From a virus: DNA of 26,293 nt. Both the position numbers and the translations under genes were made by a program. Numbering within the stretch: the stretch's first letter is position 1; every line of letters starts with the position of its first letter. The notes under the pieces are model-generated. The model saw only the letters and a list, made by a program, of their open reading frames with translations. It was not told the DNA's origin and did not search any database. Where the stretch lies: UHGV virus genome UHGV-0165251. The stretch is one strand, 5' to 3'. This document shows, one piece after another, positions 2,950-11,916 of the stretch.

Positions 2950-3581
2950 CCTTCACAGTTGTAATCACGACATCCTTCAAAATCATATGGGCTGTACTGC
3001 CAGGTAATTTTTCCGCAATGCGGACAATTCCAGCGCACCTTACCGCTTCGCGACTTTTTTCTTCTGTTTTGTTTTTTCAACCAGTCAGGTATGACCAAAC
3101 CTGCGCCCTGAACCATTGTTCTGCGGTTAAAATTATTGATATTGAACGTCCGGCGCTTTGCTGCATCGGCAATGGAAAATGGCAACCAAACTATTCCTGG
3201 CTCGTTTTTGTTGGCGACGCTAAAGATGGTTGCTTTACTGAAGTCATCTGTTGGCAATCCACCGTGTTGAAGCCAGTAAACATCGTTGCCGTTCCAGCTA
3301 CCTTTTTTGTAGGCCACATACGCAGTGCAATCTGACTCAATCAGGCTTTCTGTAGGGATGTACTGGCAATCAACGTGCCACACAGCCATTGCATCCACGC
3401 TATCAGCACAAACAGGCTGATCGATATCTCGCCCACAATTCCAGGCTTTTTGGGCTTCTTCCTGCGTGTAAACATGTGCGCGATCGATATCAGAACTGTA
3501 ACCATTGCCGTTATGGCAATGGAATGAGGCGTTAGTACCCACAGTTTCACGCAAGCACATCATGTAAAAGCGGTTATTCAC
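2937..3581 (-). CDS. hypothetical protein with a C-terminal Cys-rich zinc-ribbon-like motif
   Basis: 214-aa ORF; CPHCGK...C..C...C at the C terminus; start overlaps the upstream stop (GTGAATAA); no family recognised. Confidence 0.6.
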   Translation of the reverse strand: MNNRFYMMCLRETVGTNASFHCHNGNGYSSDIDRAHVYTQEEAQKAWNCGRDIDQPVCADSVDAMAVWHVDCQYIPTESLIESDCTAYVAYKKGSWNGNDVYWLQHGGLPTDDFSKATIFSVANKNEPGIVWLPFSIADAAKRRTFNINNFNRRTMVQGAGLVIPDWLKKQNRRKKSRSGKVRWNCPHCGKITWQYSPYDFEGCRDYNCEGWRV

Positions 3582-7309: not shown

Positions 7310-7324
7310 TTTTACCCCGTATTG

Positions 7325-7352
7325 TTTATGCCAAAAATAAAGGCCTACTATG
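7325..7352. repeat. 28-bp direct repeat, copy 1 (tttatgccaaaaataaaggcctactatg)
   Basis: 27/28 identical to copy 2 at 8095..8122; the same motif lies downstream of ral in lambda as I recall it. Confidence 0.7.
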
Positions 7353-7368
7353 CGTCCTAGTAGAATGC

Positions 7369-7827
7369 CTAATTTTCTGTTTCTTGGTTGTGTCCAAAGT
7401 TATATTCAATATCTGGTGTTGATGTATCAATATTCTTCATCCCATCAACAAGAGTTGATACAACAGCCAAATCTTGTTTGATTCTCATTAAATGGTATTT
7501 CTTCCGGCGCAATAAACTTTCAATGGCAAGTTTCTTCGTTGGGAATGCAAAAGATCTTTCTGCATTTTTTGCTACTTTCTTAATTTCATATCTATTTCTC
7601 TTTTGTTTCCATTCCTGTAACCACTGATTTGGTGCTGGTTTAAAATTAACGATCCAATGCGCAGGAACCAACCATGCATAATGCTCTGTCTGATGAAAAG
7701 CTATATATTGAAGTGCGAATATTTTGATTCCATCTTCTTCAACTGTCGCCTGGAATCTCCAGAAAACAGGCATTCCATCATGTTCAGTTTCTGATTCAGG
7801 AAAAGGTACGCTCCATGATATTGTCAT
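7369..7827 (-). CDS. hypothetical protein (152 aa), second gene of the repeat-flanked cassette
   Basis: Start overlaps the upstream stop (ATGA); no family recognised. Confidence 0.65.
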   Translation of the reverse strand: MTISWSVPFPESETEHDGMPVFWRFQATVEEDGIKIFALQYIAFHQTEHYAWLVPAHWIVNFKPAPNQWLQEWKQKRNRYEIKKVAKNAERSFAFPTKKLAIESLLRRKKYHLMRIKQDLAVVSTLVDGMKNIDTSTPDIEYNFGHNQETEN

Positions 7828-8078
7828 ATCTCACCTTCAAGAGCTTTGCTGATTGCTGACAGTGCTTTCGATACTTCATCAGGATAATGGTCATTCCATT
7901 TTTGCTTGTATGCCTTGTTTAGCATCGCTTGCAGAGCTTCGAGCAAATCAGGAGCTGCCTCCATCAATCTCACATCACCTCGATGGATGGTTGTATCGTC
8001 AAACGTGAAATAAACCCCATCATCGTTAAATCCAGCGCCAACAACATTCCATGGCCTTTTCATTCTTCCTACTGTCAT
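7824..8078 (-). CDS. hypothetical protein (84 aa), first gene of the repeat-flanked cassette
   Basis: gaggtga RBS; translationally coupled to the 152-aa gene; no family recognised. Confidence 0.65.
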   Translation of the reverse strand: MTVGRMKRPWNVVGAGFNDDGVYFTFDDTTIHRGDVRLMEAAPDLLEALQAMLNKAYKQKWNDHYPDEVSKALSAISKALEGEI

Positions 8079-8094
8079 TATTCACCTCTGTGTA

Positions 8095-8122
8095 TTTATG
8101 CCAAAAATAAAGGCCGACTATG
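8095..8122. repeat. 28-bp direct repeat, copy 2 (tttatgccaaaaataaaggccgactatg)
   Basis: Direct repeat of 7325..7352; contains the stop codon of the 8118..8432 gene. Confidence 0.7.
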
Positions 8123-8432
8123 TGGCTTTATATCTGCGCACTGAAATAATTGGGCAGTGTGTAATTCCAGCAGTCTTTTCCCATCTCAACAATGGGATGC
8201 GGAATACTTCGAACTCCACCTTCCCGATATGGTCGTTTTGGAAATCCTTTTTCCCCACCAACCAAACCTTTTCAAATCTACGCTCTATAAGGAAAGCTGA
8301 TGACCATCCATATTTAGAACCAGCTTTTAACGCTTCCTTTTTTGTCGGAAAGGTTGTAACAATGGAAATTATCTCATCAACTCGGAGGCTTAAAAGATTA
8401 TTGTCTTTAAAGCTAATTCCGTTCGACGCCAT
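8118..8432 (-). CDS. hypothetical protein (104 aa) immediately downstream of N
   Basis: Start 3 nt after the N stop; no family recognised. Confidence 0.55.
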   Translation of the reverse strand: MASNGISFKDNNLLSLRVDEIISIVTTFPTKKEALKAGSKYGWSSAFLIERRFEKVWLVGKKDFQNDHIGKVEFEVFRIPLLRWEKTAGITHCPIISVRRYKAT

Positions 8433-8435
8433 AAT

Positions 8436-8741
8436 TCATCCCTCATACAGTGGTTTGCTGCCTAATTTCATTTTCTGGCGACCAACACAAGTCACACCCA
8501 TTTCACTGCGTGGCTTGCGGTAGTAAATACGATTCTGTTTACGCTCGACTTCTTCTGACTTCTTGCAGCGAAGGCTTCCGAGTGATGCTGCTTTATCTGC
8601 TCTGACGCAACCAGAGAGCTTTAGCGCAATTTTTCGCGCCAGTCGCTGCTCTTGCATTGCCTGTTCACGTTGAGCCTGTCTGCGTGCTCTGCGGCGATTT
8701 CTGGCGTTATCGTCAGCCAGATATGTAATGACTACTGTCAT
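8436..8741 (-). CDS. N: N-type transcription antiterminator
   Basis: N-terminal arginine-rich motif NARNRRRARRQAQRE; C-terminal YRKPRSEMGVTCVGRQKMKLGSKPL resembles lambda N (YSKPGERGITCSGRQKIKGKSIPLI). Confidence 0.8.
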   Translation of the reverse strand: MTVVITYLADDNARNRRRARRQAQREQAMQEQRLARKIALKLSGCVRADKAASLGSLRCKKSEEVERKQNRIYYRKPRSEMGVTCVGRQKMKLGSKPLYEG

Positions 8742-8849
8742 GTTGACCTCCGATGATTGACTTTGGCGGTGACGCGCCGGGTGCTTATCTTCCGGTTGCT
8801 GTCGTGCAGCTGCACTTCACGTCACCCCAAAGCCAACTACTCTTTGGTT

Positions 8850-8889
8850 CCCGCATTTCGGCGGGACAATCCCATCAATGTTAAAGAGC
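8850..8889 (-). promoter_or_regulatory. nutL (boxA gctctttaa plus boxB hairpin cccgccgaaatgcggg)
   Basis: The same boxA and boxB sequences recur at 10519..10561 on the plus strand (nutR); nutL lies between pL and N. Confidence 0.6.
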
Positions 8890-8935
8890 CTGCCAATCTT
8901 TTCCGTTTGGCTTCCAGCTTCCTGCTGATGGCTAA

Positions 8936-9022
8936 AGAATACTGTAGGTATTTTATTGTGTAAATACCCAAGGTATTTATTTTTGATGAAATAATGATAA
9001 GCAAATGAATACAAAGGATATT
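8936..9022 (-). promoter_or_regulatory. oL/pL: three operators AATAC-N5-GTATT (8938..8952, 8963..8977, 9008..9022); pL -35 tttaca and -10 tattct
   Basis: Palindromes of the same consensus as in oR; putative -10 and -35 (17-bp spacer) overlap OL1 and OL2. Confidence 0.55.
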
Positions 9023-9108
9023 TATTTTTTCGGTGTCTGCTTGTTCAGTGCTTTTTATGCGGGATATGTGAAGTGGATCCCGATAGCTATTGCTGCCGGG
9101 ATTATAGG

Positions 9109-9477
9109 TTAGTCAGCGAAGGTTAAGACGAGAATTAACTTAATGATGTCTGCTACAACAGACACGGCCATAGATAAACCAAAGACGATCCAAGCCACAG
9201 TGATGTCTTCACTACCATCGTATAGAGTTCCGTAATCACTGGTGTAAGGCGTAAATGTCGCGCCTTGATACAACAGGTATAAGCTTGAACCATAGAGGAT
9301 AAATGCAGATATCCCTTGTATTGCTATGATCACTAGAATCATGAAACGAGCTGATCTATGCGCCCAAGCCTGTCTTATTTTTTCTGATAGAGATTTCGCA
9401 ATAAAAGCATGCGCTAAGCCGTAAATTGTCGAGATTGCCAACATCCCAAAAAAGCTTGCTATAGCGGTTCCAACCAT
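9109..9477 (-). CDS. hypothetical integral membrane protein (3 predicted TM helices) co-transcribed with cI
   Basis: ATG 16 nt after the cI stop with aagggg RBS (the ORF track starts it at TTG overlapping the cI stop); three long hydrophobic segments; not RexB-like. Confidence 0.65.
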   Translation of the reverse strand: MVGTAIASFFGMLAISTIYGLAHAFIAKSLSEKIRQAWAHRSARFMILVIIAIQGISAFILYGSSLYLLYQGATFTPYTSDYGTLYDGSEDITVAWIVFGLSMAVSVVADIIKLILVLTFAD

Positions 9478-9494
9478 AAGCGCCCCTTGCGTGA

Positions 9495-10211
9495 TCAAAC
9501 CAGCCTTAGTTTTGTCTCAATTGCAACGCCTATAATCTTGCAGTTTCCATTGATTGGCACGAGAGGCCATGCAGGGTTAAGTCCCTTGAGGTATTTATTT
9601 CCTCCGTCGATTATCAGCTTCTTGAATGTTGCCTCGTTAGAGTCAGAAAGTTTTGCTATGACCAAGCTGCCGTTGATCGCCTCCCTTCCGGTATCGAAAA
9701 GAACGAATGTTCCCTCTGGAATGCTTAACCCAACCGGTGCCGTCATTGAATCACCTTCCACTTTAAGCCAGAACGCATTACCTTGAATATGCGCGTCAGA
9801 CTCAAGCCAAACATCTATGTCTTTAATGGTGTATGGTTCGCATGCTTCACACCACGAGCCAGCCTGGATACTGCTTAACACCGGATACCTCTTTCCTGCT
9901 CTGTATTCCCCTGCATACCTTACGTTGGCATCGCTCTTAAGGCTTTCTGCCTGTTCTGCAACCTTGGCAGCAATTGACTGGCTAAAATCAGCAATTGAGA
10001 CTTGCAACAATCGTGCAAAACCAGATGCAACCTCAACGTTTAGCGCATTTCTGCCATTAAGATAATGCCCTACCGCTCCTTGGGTGATACCCAGTTCATC
10101 AGCGATTGAGTATTGGGTTATTCCCAATTCTTTCTTTTTTGACTCATACAAAGCCTTAAGCCGCTTAGCGTCTTCCAGCTGTTCTGTCGTCAGTGATTTT
10201 TTATTTTCCAT
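9495..10211 (-). CDS. cI: CI repressor (HTH domain plus LexA/S24-type autocleavage domain)
   Basis: 238 aa; N-terminal HTH (ITQYSIADELGITQGAVGHYLNG), C-terminal GDSM serine and K dyad region (GDSMTAPVG...VIAKL...TFKKL). Confidence 0.9.
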   Translation of the reverse strand: MENKKSLTTEQLEDAKRLKALYESKKKELGITQYSIADELGITQGAVGHYLNGRNALNVEVASGFARLLQVSIADFSQSIAAKVAEQAESLKSDANVRYAGEYRAGKRYPVLSSIQAGSWCEACEPYTIKDIDVWLESDAHIQGNAFWLKVEGDSMTAPVGLSIPEGTFVLFDTGREAINGSLVIAKLSDSNEATFKKLIIDGGNKYLKGLNPAWPLVPINGNCKIIGVAIETKLRLV

Positions 10212-10217
10212 AGCTTA

Positions 10218-10288
10218 ATTCTAATAGCTAAGGTACTTAAACTAAAAATACCCTGAGTATTGATTGCTTTGAATACCTGTAGTATTCT
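10218..10288. promoter_or_regulatory. oR with pRM and pR: operators OR3 10223..10237, OR2 10247..10261, OR1 10272..10286; pR -35 ttgatt/-10 tattct; pRM -10 tagaat on minus strand
   Basis: Three AATAC-N5-GTATT palindromes at 24-25 bp centre spacing between divergent cI and cro; the pRM -10 ends 6 nt before the cI ATG. Confidence 0.6.
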
Positions 10289-10317
10289 TTGTTCATGGTT
10301 AATAACGGAGAGTGCAT

Positions 10318-10512
10318 ATGATTCGAATGACACTTGCCGATTACGCCAAAATCCATGGACAGGCTAAAGCAGCCAGTGACTTTGGTGTAATTCAGTGCGC
10401 TATCAGCAAGGCCATTCTGGCAGGCCGTAACATCATGGTTACGGTAAAGCCTGATGGCAGTGTGATTGGAGAGGAAGTTCGTCCTTTCCCAAGCAACAAG
10501 AAAAACAAATAG
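10318..10512 (+). CDS. cro: Cro repressor
   Basis: [64 protein letters not shown] resembles lambda Cro; ggag 7 nt upstream of this ATG. Confidence 0.85.
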
Positions 10513-10518
10513 TAACAC

Positions 10519-10561
10519 CGCTCTTTAACAGTCATGGTCCTCATTCCCGCCGAAATGCGGG
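10519..10561 (+). promoter_or_regulatory. nutR (boxA cgctctttaa, boxB cccgccgaaatgcggg)
   Basis: Immediately downstream of cro; boxB identical to the nutL copy. Confidence 0.65.
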
Positions 10562-10569
10562 AATACAAC

Positions 10570-10600
10570 GCGCATAAGTTGATGCGCATAACTTCTTATT
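10570..10600 (+). terminator. tR1-like hairpin (gcgcat-aagttg-atgcgc)
   Basis: 6-bp stem followed by a moderately T-rich tract between nutR and cII. Confidence 0.3.
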
Positions 10601-10620
10601 TGTTAAGGAAATACTTACAT

Positions 10621-10914
10621 ATGGTTCGTGCAAACAAACGCAACGAGGCTCTAAGAATCGAGAGTGCGTTGCTTAACAAAATCGCAATGCTTGGAACTGA
10701 GAAGACAGCGGAAGCTGTGGGAGTTGATAAGTCGCAGATCAGCAGGTGGAAGAGGGATTGGATTCCAAAGTTCTCAATGCTGCTTGCTGTTCTTGAATGG
10801 GGCGTCGTCGACGACGATATGGCTCGATTGGCACGACAAGTTGCTTCGATTCTCACCAATAAAAAACGCCCGGCGGCAACCGAGCGTTCTGAACAAATCC
10901 AGATGGAATTCTGA
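10621..10914 (+). CDS. cII: CII transcriptional activator
   Basis: 97-aa product MVRANKRNEALRIESALLNKIAMLGTEKTAEAVGVDKSQISRWKRDW... near-identical to lambda CII as I recall it. Confidence 0.9.
   Translation: MVRANKRNEALRIESALLNKIAMLGTEKTAEAVGVDKSQISRWKRDWIPKFSMLLAVLEWGVVDDDMARLARQVASILTNKKRPAATERSEQIQMEF
10630..10643 (-). promoter_or_regulatory. pRE CII-binding site (ttgcgtttgtttgc on minus strand)
   Basis: TTGC-N6-TTGC direct repeat inside the cII 5' end, antisense orientation. Confidence 0.5.
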
Positions 10915-10937
10915 GGTCATTACTGGATCAATCCACA
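10860..10937 (-). ncRNA. oop: oop antisense RNA with terminator hairpin
   Basis: Plus strand aataaaaaacgcccggcggcaaccgagcgttctgaacaaatccagatgga... matches the lambda oop region as I recall it; cgcccggcggc hairpin plus T-run on the minus strand. Confidence 0.55.
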
Positions 10938-10946
10938 GGAGTAATT

Positions 10947-11108
10947 ATGACAAAACGTCGTAAGAAATACCAGGAAAAAGAAGAGATTCGACACCCTGAT
11001 TCACCTGAGGGATTAGTGGTAGCCGCAGCAAATAACAGGGCGTTCGCAGAGCGCCTTGTTGGTGTTTACAGACTAGCCAAAGCAGGAGTGAAACATGGGC
11101 GTCGTTAA
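10947..11108 (+). CDS. possible small basic protein (53 aa) between cII and the O-like gene
   Basis: Own translation [53 protein letters not shown]; ggag 7 nt upstream; overlaps the O-like start by 14 nt. Confidence 0.25.
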   Translation: MTKRRKKYQEKEEIRHPDSPEGLVVAAANNRAFAERLVGVYRLAKAGVKHGRR

Positions 11109-11916
11109 GTTAGCTGATTACAGGCCTCAACTGGAGGTCGTGGAGCATCGCGTGGCAGATACCGAAGATGGTTTCATGCGCGTTGCTAACGAGATTACCG
11201 ACAGTCTGCTGATGGCTGATTTAACCGTCCGGCAGCTGAAGGTGATGCTCGCTATCATGCGCAAGACATACGGATTCAATAAGCCGATGGATCGACTCAC
11301 AAACACGCAGATAGCAGCCATGACAGGTATTCATCACACTCATGTTTGCGCTGCCAAGCGCCAGCTTATCGAGCGTAAATTCCTCATTGCTGATGGCGTG
11401 AAAATCGGAGTGAACAAGGTGGTTTCTCAGTGGATTAGCCAGGACAGCTTAACATTAGCTAAAACAGCTAATAAAACATTAGCCAAGTCGGCTAATGGGC
11501 ATAAGCCAAGTCAGCTAAACACAAAAGACAATATACAAAAGACAATAAATACAAATACCCCCTTACCCCCTAACGGGGGCGGCGATGGGCAGGTTAAACC
11601 TGAACGTCGCAAGGCAGAACGAATCGACTACGAATCCTTCCTGAACGCCTACAACACCGAAGTCGGTGACAGACTTCCACATGCTGTTGCGGTCAACGAG
11701 AAACGCAAACGCCGCCTGAAGAAAATCATCCCGCAACTGAAAACGCCAAACGTGGACGGTTTCAGAGCGTATGTCAGGGCGTTTGTGCATCAGGCCAAGC
11801 CGTTTTACTTCGGAGACAACGACACGGGCTGGACGGCTGATTTTGATTACTTGCTGAGAGAAGATTCGTTAACGGGGGTTCGGGAAGGGAAGTTTGCAGA
11901 CAGGGGGATAGCATGA
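11095..11916 (+). CDS. O: replication initiator, lambda O / P22 gp18-like N-terminal domain
   Basis: [32 protein letters not shown] matches lambda O (LTKRQFKVLLAILRKTYGWNKPMDRITDSQLS); C-terminal half unrelated to lambda O. Confidence 0.8.
11453..11557. other. candidate replication origin: three ~20-bp iterons plus AT-rich tract inside the O-like gene
   Basis: cattagctaaaacagctaat / cattagccaagtcggctaat / cataagccaagtcagctaaac followed by acaaaagacaatatacaaaagacaataaatacaaatac. Confidence 0.5.

Follow-up and report, generated by a model that had tools for sequence, protein, structure and literature searches.

The immunity region of the window, the whole stretch of 26,293 nt of viral DNA that was analysed, very probably belongs to a mosaic lambdoid (P22-like, Lederbergvirus-type) E. 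coli phage or prophage and is of the HK620 type. Between positions 8550 and 10623, the window aligned without gaps to phage HK620 (AF335538) with 98.8% identity, and none of the 25 mismatches fell in an operator or a nut site. The nutL, pL, OL1-3, hkaS, cI, OR1-3, pR, cro and nutR features of the HK620 GenBank record map to the same positions (Table 1). With respect to immunity type, the DNA-binding domain of the repressor and Cro both match their HK620 counterparts, and OL1, OL2, OR1-3 and the site at 9007-9023 are all without mismatch to HK620. The boxA and boxB sequences, pL and pR are likewise identical. The architecture is lambda-like, as originally predicted, with N, nutL, pL/oL, a membrane-protein gene, cI, pRM/oR/pR, cro, nutR and cII in that order.

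Table 1. Features of the immunity region, in window coordinates
Feature	Position	Strand	Description and basis
N antiterminator gene, 101 aa	8436-8741	-	phrog_271, E=5e-38
N-ARM + nutL module	8650-8936	-	first ~30 N codons, leader, nutL
nutL boxB hairpin	8850-8865	-	CCCGC-CGAAAU-GCGGG
nutL boxA	8880-8889	-	GCTCTTTAAC; within HK620-annotated nutL
pL promoter	8936-8964	-	-35 TTTACA, 17 nt spacer, -10 TATTCT; promoter scan and HK620 annotation
OL1	8937-8953		GAATACTGTAGGTATTT; overlaps pL -10; HK620 annotation, matrix, exact palindrome
OL2	8962-8978		AAATACCCAAGGTATTT; overlaps pL -35; HK620 annotation, matrix, exact palindrome
Probable OL3	9007-9023		GAATACAAAGGATATTT; 45 bp from OL2; site of the original prediction; operator matrix
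hkaS homologue in rex slot, 122 aa	9109-9477	-	three predicted membrane helices (hydropathy)
cI repressor, 238 aa	9495-10211	-	Pfam HTH_3 and Peptidase_S24
Predicted pRM -10	10218-10223	-	TAGAAT; read from sequence
OR3	10222-10238		TAATAGCTAAGGTACTT; begins 11 nt from cI ATG, as in lambda; HK620 annotation
OR2	10246-10262		AAATACCCTGAGTATTG; HK620 annotation, matrix, exact palindrome
pR promoter	10260-10288	+	-35 TTGATT, 17 nt spacer, -10 TATTCT; sequence and HK620 annotation
OR1	10271-10287		GAATACCTGTAGTATTC; spans pR spacer and -10; HK620 annotation, exact palindrome
cro, 64 aa, lambda-Cro fold family	10318-10512	+	Pfam Cro, E=3.6e-26
nutR/tR1 module	10520-10603	+	boxA 10520-10529, boxB 10546-10561
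Invariant 20-mer linker	10604-10623		TAAGGAAATACTTACATATG; cII ribosome-binding site and ATG
Lambda-type cII	10621-10914	+	Phage_CII, E=1.7e-48

Repressor, Cro and relation to known immunity types

The cI product combines a lambda-CI-like HTH N-terminal domain with an S24 self-cleavage domain and is transcribed divergently from a Cro-family protein, the arrangement of a lambda-type switch. It is identical to HK620 cI at 237 of 238 residues, the sole change, A66T, lying outside the HTH, and Cro is identical throughout (64/64). Both proteins also showed full-length homology to their lambda counterparts, CI (PDB 3BDN) with 42% identity (E=2.9e-52) and Cro (PDB 1COP) with 59% identity (E=4.7e-19). 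The cI and cro described as non-lambda thus encode homologues of lambda CI and Cro and do not represent a different protein family. The residues of the recognition helices differ, reading QGAVGHY in CI and QCAISK in Cro, versus QSGVGAL and QSAINK in lambda. The cI and cro of phi21 are unrelated in specificity to those of the window. As in HK620, the rex slot contains hkaS, in place of lambda rexAB; a further difference from lambda is the distance between oL and oR, 1.33 kb. The HkaS homologue matches HK620 HkaS at 119 of 122 residues and falls in phrog_6534, labelled as of unknown function; neither hkaS nor the ORFs to the left of N had a match in Pfam or PADLOC (defence systems).

The HK620-type region was also found in HK630, HK140, mEpX2, HF4s and Stx2c phages, and in 146 of 5,426 complete E. 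coli genomes. HF4s has the same combination of N motif, immunity and lambda-type cII as the window. The DNA-binding domain of cI was at least 95% identical in 16 phage records, the next relatives reaching at most 84%.

The reference for the coliphage HK620 immunity region is Clark et al. 2001 (J Mol Biol 311:657). The sites in the GenBank record are sequence-based annotations, in which the nut sites are labelled 'putative'. To call the region 'already characterised' thus rests on GenBank annotation, because the searchable literature, which did not extend to Clark et al. 2001, yielded no binding or genetic data for the HK620 immunity type. Within the same scope, searches on the operators, boxB, Cro and repressor of HK620 found no account of an HK620-type switch.

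The original prediction had implied novelty, while holding that identity with a characterised immunity type would make the region known. Comparison with HK620 showed that identity, albeit to sites annotated as putative. That the immunity and nut specificities have never been described before is thus extremely improbable: although neither the operators nor boxB are those of lambda or phi21, and the boxB, operator and N-motif strings had no match in a full-text literature search, the sites are base-for-base those annotated in HK620, Cro is the same, cI is one residue off, and 16 or more phage records, besides the E. coli genomes, contain the region. By these comparisons, the HK620-type region is already known, its annotation dating from 2001. 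It is also very unlikely that the window represents a decayed prophage remnant with a non-working switch. The three residues by which hkaS departs from HK620 and the different C-terminus of N could be read in that way, but all ORFs are intact, the deposited phages HK620, mEpX2 and HF4s have identical regulatory sites, and the replication, lysis and head genes also present in the window match other deposited phage genomes.

Operators, promoters and the position of OL3

The operators, taken as 17 bp, were searched for by their core pattern, AATAC-N5-GTATT (AATACNNNNNGTATT). The pattern had exactly four matches in the 26-kb window (8938, 8963, 10247 and 10272), all in oL or oR, versus 0.02 expected and none in 100 shuffles. 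Permitting one mismatch added a fifth site, at 9008-9022, and the core of OR3 (10223-10237, AATAGCTAAGGTACT) has two mismatches to the palindrome. Of the six operators said to share it, four are thus exact and two are only degenerate copies. The operators were correctly predicted to be unlike those of lambda: the half-site is AAATACC in the window and TATCACC in lambda, the lambda and phi21 loci contained neither AATAC-N5-GTATT operators nor the boxB of the window, and lambda operators (TATCACCGC-type) and the lambda boxB, GCCCUGAARAAGGGC, were absent from the window.

Three operators had been proposed on each side, as in lambda, which also has the same gene order. The claim stood for oR; in oL, OL1 and OL2 are clear, and the third site is weak and uncertain, GenBank and the original prediction placing it differently. 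The tripartite oR, between cI and cro, has a site every 24-25 bp, with OR1 and OR2 overlapping the hexamers of pR and OR3 abutting the predicted pRM -10. This arrangement is conserved in distant relatives: in phages of Hafnia, Serratia and Erwinia, oR and oL each contain three AATAC-N5-GTATT sites with diverged flanks, and the CI N-terminal domains of these phages are 67-84% identical with the same recognition helices. Because the promoter scan missed pR (8/12 match), this promoter was assigned by inspection and from the HK620 annotation. The cI ATG has no Shine-Dalgarno sequence and the predicted pRM -10 lies 6 nt upstream of it, which implies that the cI mRNA is probably leaderless, as in lambda.

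OL3 of the HK620 immunity type probably lies at 9007-9023 and not at the position given in GenBank. The site at 9007-9023 scored 12.1 on the operator matrix versus -13.5 for the GenBank OL3 (8984-9000), which was rejected as an operator; shifts of up to 3 bp either way also scored negative. It is possible, if unlikely, that only OL1 and OL2 work in oL and that 9007-9023 is a chance match, or that OL3 is where GenBank places it. The score of 12.1 is below those of the other five operators (16.5-23), and about 0.4 hits as good are expected per 26 kb. The 45-bp gap to OL2 is unlike the 24-25 bp found elsewhere, the site coincides in part with the annotated tIMM and with the beginning of a small ORF, and in Pocitis76 and EhrS_49 the third oL site is instead 29 and 21 bp, respectively, from OL2. 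Against this reading, only 0.0015 such hits are expected per 100 bp, the distance within which the site lies from OL2; Serratia phage OS31 keeps a weak, degenerate site at the same 45-bp distance; all three of the distant relatives have three oL sites; and the GenBank alternative has the negative scores given above.

N, the nut sites and the mosaic joints

The assignment of the N gene is based on an N-terminal arginine-rich motif, read from the sequence, and a conserved C-terminal segment that binds RNA polymerase in lambda N (6GOV, residues 75-109, E=3e-4); the match to Pfam N_peptide (E=8.7e-4) fell short of the curated cutoff. Residues 1-56 are identical to HK620 N, including the motif, NARNRRRARRQAQRE, and residues 33-99 are phi21-N-like (64/67 identical). 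HK620 N differs in ending in ...LPNVAIYAAGYRKSKQLTAR, the joint being at 8550. As predicted, the motif differs from those of lambda and phi21; it is without the Trp18 position of lambda. The window resembles phi21 in boxA (GCTCTTTAAC), nut flanks and ~80% DNA identity over 8429-8936. It differs from phi21 in the arginine-rich motif, in the N-terminal 32 residues of N and in boxB, which is TCACCTCTAACCGGTGA-type in phi21; its nut specificity is thus not that of phi21.

The boxB 16-mer, CCCGCCGAAATGCGGG, occurs in exactly two copies in the window (0.01 expected), one at each nut site, in agreement with the original prediction. Each copy is 14-16 nt downstream of boxA, which likewise occurs just twice; the two elements follow pL as well as pR, each time on the transcribed strand. 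Both boxB copies fold into a G+C stem with the hexaloop CGAAAU. The hairpin was also rightly described as unlike that of lambda, which has a GAAAA/GAAGA pentaloop; the 16-mer was absent from the lambda locus. A C-U mismatch may close the loop, making it a GAAA tetraloop. An Rfam scan of 8000-11500 gave only a spurious match to SCARNA7 (E=0.37); the nut sites are thus not covered by any curated RNA family.

HK620, HF4s and mEpX2 have the same boxB at both of their nut sites, and it is also present in CUS-3 and N7, two heteroimmune P22-like coliphages whose cI and cro are of the phi21/P22 type. The N motif, nutL and nutR of CUS-3 and N7 are identical to those of the window, but a different immunity cassette, without AATAC-N5-GTATT operators, separates their nut sites. 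In an IMG/VR sample, 74 contigs had a divergent pair of such nut sites; NARNRRRA[RK]R was encoded beside one of the sites in 61 of the 65 with enough flank, and just 26 of the 74 had HK620-type operators. A compensatory G-C to A-T change in the boxB stem was seen in 11 sites; as the contigs were selected with a fixed loop sequence, the sample does not test loop conservation. By these sequence comparisons, the N motif and boxB move together as a module, independently of the operators. The pair occurs widely, alongside several different immunity cassettes. We give about even weight to the proposal that NARNRRRARRQAQRE and this boxB constitute a biochemically unstudied peptide-RNA pair distinct from those of lambda, P22 and phi21, taken with the separate relocation of OL3.

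The predicted near-lambda cII was confirmed: its product is identical to lambda CII at 96 of 97 residues, the DNA of the gene is 96.6% identical, and a TTGC-N6-TTGC CII site can be read in its 5' end. In HF4s, CUS-3 and N7, cII is annotated as a longer ORF, which in the window has 126 aa (10534-10914); this version was rejected because its frame crosses the boxB of nutR and the lambda-type gene starts at 10621. HK620 differs in having a P22-c1-like cII, and CUS-3 resembles the window in having a lambda-type one. Homology to HK620 stops at 10623 and homology to lambda begins at 10604, which places the recombination joint predicted between cro and cII at the invariant 20-mer, directly after nutR/tR1. 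At the other borders, mEpX2 homology begins at 8650, homology to CUS-3, N7 and phi21 ends at 8936, the N-ARM/nutL module is common to CUS-3 and N7, and so is the nutR/tR1 module, although cro differs in these phages. Judged from the alignments, the region consists of four exchangeable pieces: the N motif with nutL (8650-8936), the operators with cI and cro (8937-10519), nutR (10520-10603) and the lambda-type cII from 10604-10623. The joints fall at short conserved linkers, namely one base before OL1, the nutR boxA and the cII ribosome-binding site/ATG. The union of an HK620-type region with a lambda-type cII is ordinary phage mosaicism.

A model of the switch and its implications

On the basis of the identity with HK620, the site positions and the module borders observed here, a model of the switch can be proposed in which CI and Cro binding, cooperativity, pRM activation, oL-oR looping and antitermination are taken from lambda. 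CI dimers would bind the 17-bp operators at oR and oL, repressing pR and pL, and CI at OR2 would stimulate the weak pRM. Cro, acting on the same operators, would silence pRM and, later, dampen early transcription. Upon induction, RecA-stimulated self-cleavage by the S24 domain would inactivate CI. The arginine-rich motif of N would bind boxB, beside boxA, in the nutL and nutR transcripts, and N would thereby render RNA polymerase resistant to terminators.

A suitable label for the region is 'imm HK620, N/nut HK620-type, cII lambda-type'; beyond getting the annotation right, the assignment is of little consequence. The N motif-boxB pair, if characterised, could become an additional orthogonal peptide-RNA tethering pair. 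From the label, the phage is predicted to be homoimmune with HK620, HK630, HK140, mEpX2 and HF4s and heteroimmune with lambda, phi21, 434 and P22. Overall, the region provides a clean textbook example of lambdoid mosaicism.

An immunity region of the HK620 type

According to a megablast search of deposited phage genomes, window 8550-10623 aligns without gaps to nucleotides 7454-9527 of coliphage HK620 (AF335538) with 98.8% identity (25 mismatches over 2,074 bases). The HK620 record annotates N, nutL, pL, OL1, OL2, OL3, tIMM, hkaS, cI, OR3, OR2, OR1, pR, cro, nutR, tR1 and pRE. Shifted by +1096, these features coincided with those of the original prediction, whose gene order was also borne out by ORF calling and domain searches. 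No operator or nut site contained any of the 25 mismatches. Cro was identical to that of HK620 (64/64 residues), and CI matched at 237 of 238 positions, the sole difference, A66T, lying outside the helix-turn-helix.

Features of the immunity region in window coordinates
Feature	Position	Strand	Basis
N	8436-8741	minus	ORF calling and domain searches
nutL	8849-8890		HK620 annotation, +1096
OL1	8937-8953		HK620 annotation, +1096
OL2	8962-8978		HK620 annotation, +1096
122-aa membrane-protein gene (hkaS homologue)	9109-9477	minus	ORF calling and domain searches
cI	9495-10211	minus	HTH_3 and Peptidase_S24 domains
OR3	10222-10238		HK620 annotation, +1096
OR2	10246-10262		HK620 annotation, +1096
OR1	10271-10287		HK620 annotation, +1096
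cro	10318-10512	plus	Pfam Cro, E=3.6e-26
nutR	10519-10564		HK620 annotation, +1096
cII	10621-10914	plus	Phage_CII, E=1.7e-48

HK630, HK140, mEpX2, HF4s, HZ41, phi296/phi367 and two Stx2c phages also carry this region, as do 146 of 5,426 complete E. coli genomes. In tblastn searches with the CI N-terminal domain, 16 phage records were at least 95% identical; a few Serratia, Hafnia and Erwinia phages and coliphage Fostie followed at 67-84%, and all remaining records, including lambda, were at or below 54%. This clear break indicates a discrete immunity type, already deposited and annotated. Thus, the elements originally listed were all present, non-random and right in kind, and the region, being identical to the immunity region annotated in HK620, is known rather than novel. 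Searchable literature yielded no biochemical study of either the CI/operator set or the N-motif/boxB pair.

For the hkaS protein, encoded in the rexAB slot, three membrane helices are predicted and no function is assigned. Its ORF can be extended seven codons upstream (9109-9498, minus) to a TTG start overlapping the cI stop; the HK620 annotation uses the ATG at 9477. Convergent with hkaS is a 35-aa hydrophobic ORF (9005-9112, plus; MNTKDIYFFGVCLFSAFYAGYVKWIPIAIAAGIIG), the ATG of which falls within the candidate OL3. HF4s lists this ORF as a hypothetical protein, HK620 leaves it unannotated, and it had no PHROG match.

Operators and switch proteins

The palindrome AATAC-N5-GTATT, predicted to be shared by six operators, matched the 26.3-kb window exactly at four places, two just upstream of N and two between cI and cro (0.02 expected; none in 100 shuffles). 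The remaining two copies were imperfect, with one mismatch at 9008-9022 and two at 10223-10237 (OR3). The half-site of the 17-bp operator is AAATACC, as opposed to TATCACC in lambda. OR1 spans the spacer and −10 element of pR (TTGATT, 17 nt, TATTCT), and OL1 and OL2 span pL (TTTACA, 17 nt, TATTCT). The cI ATG and the start of OR3 lie 11 nt apart, precisely as in lambda. Because this ATG has a TAGAAT hexamer at a distance of 6 nt and lacks a Shine-Dalgarno sequence, the pRM transcript of cI is predicted to be leaderless, as in lambda.

The location of the third oL operator differs between the HK620 record and the original prediction. Scored with a matrix derived from the five unambiguous sites, the GenBank OL3 (8984-9000; TGATGAAATAATGATAA) bears no likeness to the operator consensus: it scored −13.5, and displacing it by as much as 3 bp in either direction always gave a negative score too. 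By contrast, the predicted site at 9007-9023 (GAATACAAAGGATATTT), 23 bp farther from pL, scored 12.1, the sixth-best position in the window; matches this good are expected about 0.4 times per 26 kb and 0.0015 times within 100 bp of OL2. Its distance from OL2 is 45 bp, against 24-25 bp between the other neighbouring operators. In Serratia phage OS31, a degenerate third oL site is likewise set 45 bp from OL2; the corresponding distances are 29 bp in Hafnia phage Pocitis76 and 21 bp in Erwinia phage EhrS_49. Overall, the GenBank OL3 appears misplaced, and 9007-9023 is the better, albeit unproven, candidate.

CI is homologous to lambda CI over its full length (3BDN, E=2.9e-52), and Cro to lambda Cro (1COP, E=4.7e-19). 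The recognition helices differ: QGAVGHY in CI and QCAISK in Cro, against QSGVGAL and QSAINK, respectively, in lambda. In Pocitis76, OS31 and EhrS_49, whose CI N-terminal domains are 67-84% identical, the CI recognition helix is unchanged or nearly so (SQGAVGHY in Pocitis76); EhrS_49 Cro has two changed helix positions (HQTAISK). All three phages keep AATAC-N5-GTATT palindromes in oL, while the DNA around the operators has diverged to about 65-70% identity. Pocitis76 and EhrS_49 also keep the palindrome at three oR positions; in OS31, with a short annotated cI-cro interval, one was seen. By analogy with lambda, from which binding, cooperativity and looping are extrapolated, the region would constitute a lambda-type bistable switch with altered DNA specificity.

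The joint with cII

Homology to HK620 ends at 10623, and homology to lambda spans 10604-10954 (96.6% identity). The overlap is a 20-mer, TAAGGAAATACTTACATATG, which holds the cII ribosome-binding site and ATG and shows no variation among the window, HK620, lambda, CUS-3, N7 and HF4s. It is preceded by nutR/tR1 of HK620 or lambda type and followed by cII of lambda or P22-c1 type, in three combinations among these six sequences. The predicted recombination joint between cro and cII is therefore real and located at this conserved linker. A list of short sequences common to HK620 and lambda, attributed by PMC3349717 to Clark et al. (2001), fits such a joint. A 126-aa ORF (10534-10914, plus), called cII in HF4s, CUS-3 and N7, starts upstream of the nutR boxB; its 29 N-terminal residues are translated nut/tR1, and the lambda-type cII start is 10621.

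The N and nut module

The boxB 16-mer CCCGCCGAAATGCGGG occurs exactly twice in the window (8850-8865, minus; 10546-10561, plus), each time on the strand transcribed from pL or pR and 14-16 nt downstream of one of the only two copies of boxA (GCTCTTTAAC), in agreement with the prediction of identical boxB hairpins at both nut sites. Both copies fold into a G+C stem with the hexaloop CGAAAU; the boxB sequences in the lambda and phi21 records differ from this 16-mer. In EhrS_49 and ten other loci, the nutR stem has A-T in place of one G-C pair and an unaltered loop, a compensatory substitution that agrees with a hairpin. The pL leader of Pocitis76 harbours an annotated tRNA-Gly gene (3423-3502 of that locus, L008) that is situated between nutL and N, an unusual place for a tRNA.

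N is a three-part mosaic. Residues 1-56, arginine-rich motif included, are identical to HK620 N; residues 33-99 match phi21 N at 64 of 67 positions; and the first ~30 residues also occur in HK620 and mEpX2 on other C-termini. The first ~30 codons, which encode the motif, are thus joined to at least three N bodies: phi21-like (window, CUS-3), P22-like (mEpX2) and HK620 type. In the P22-like coliphages CUS-3 and N7, cI and cro are of phi21/P22 type and these operators are absent, but the N motif is shared and boxA-boxB is identical at both nutL and nutR. Homology of these two phages to the window stops at 8936, the base just before OL1, and restarts at 10520, at the nutR boxA. By these alignments, N and the nut sites are a separate module.

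Farther along the pL operon, an intergenic repeat of ~35-40 bp follows two early-left genes (7322-7358 and 8087-8126, minus; …CATAGT.GGCCTTTATTTTTGGCATAAA…) and is also present in CUS-3 and phi21. As the CUS-3 copy forms a GGCCG/CGGCC hairpin with a T-run after it, the repeat resembles either an intrinsic terminator or a conserved mosaic linker.

A scan of IMG/VR with the pattern boxA-N(8-24)-CCGAAATG, in which the boxB loop is fixed and loop conservation is thus outside the scan's reach, identified 74 contigs with a divergent nut-site pair. An N with the motif NARNRRRA[RK]R adjoins one nut site in 61 of the 65 contigs with enough flank, and AATAC-N5-GTATT operators lie between the pair in only 26 of the 74. 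Among these loci (L012-L131), pair spacings group at about 1.1 kb and about 1.65 kb, and a tail extends to 3.7 kb. The immunity cassettes enclosed by the nut pair come in two or more main sizes, plus rarer ones, which argues that the N/nut specificity is combined with several repressor specificities.
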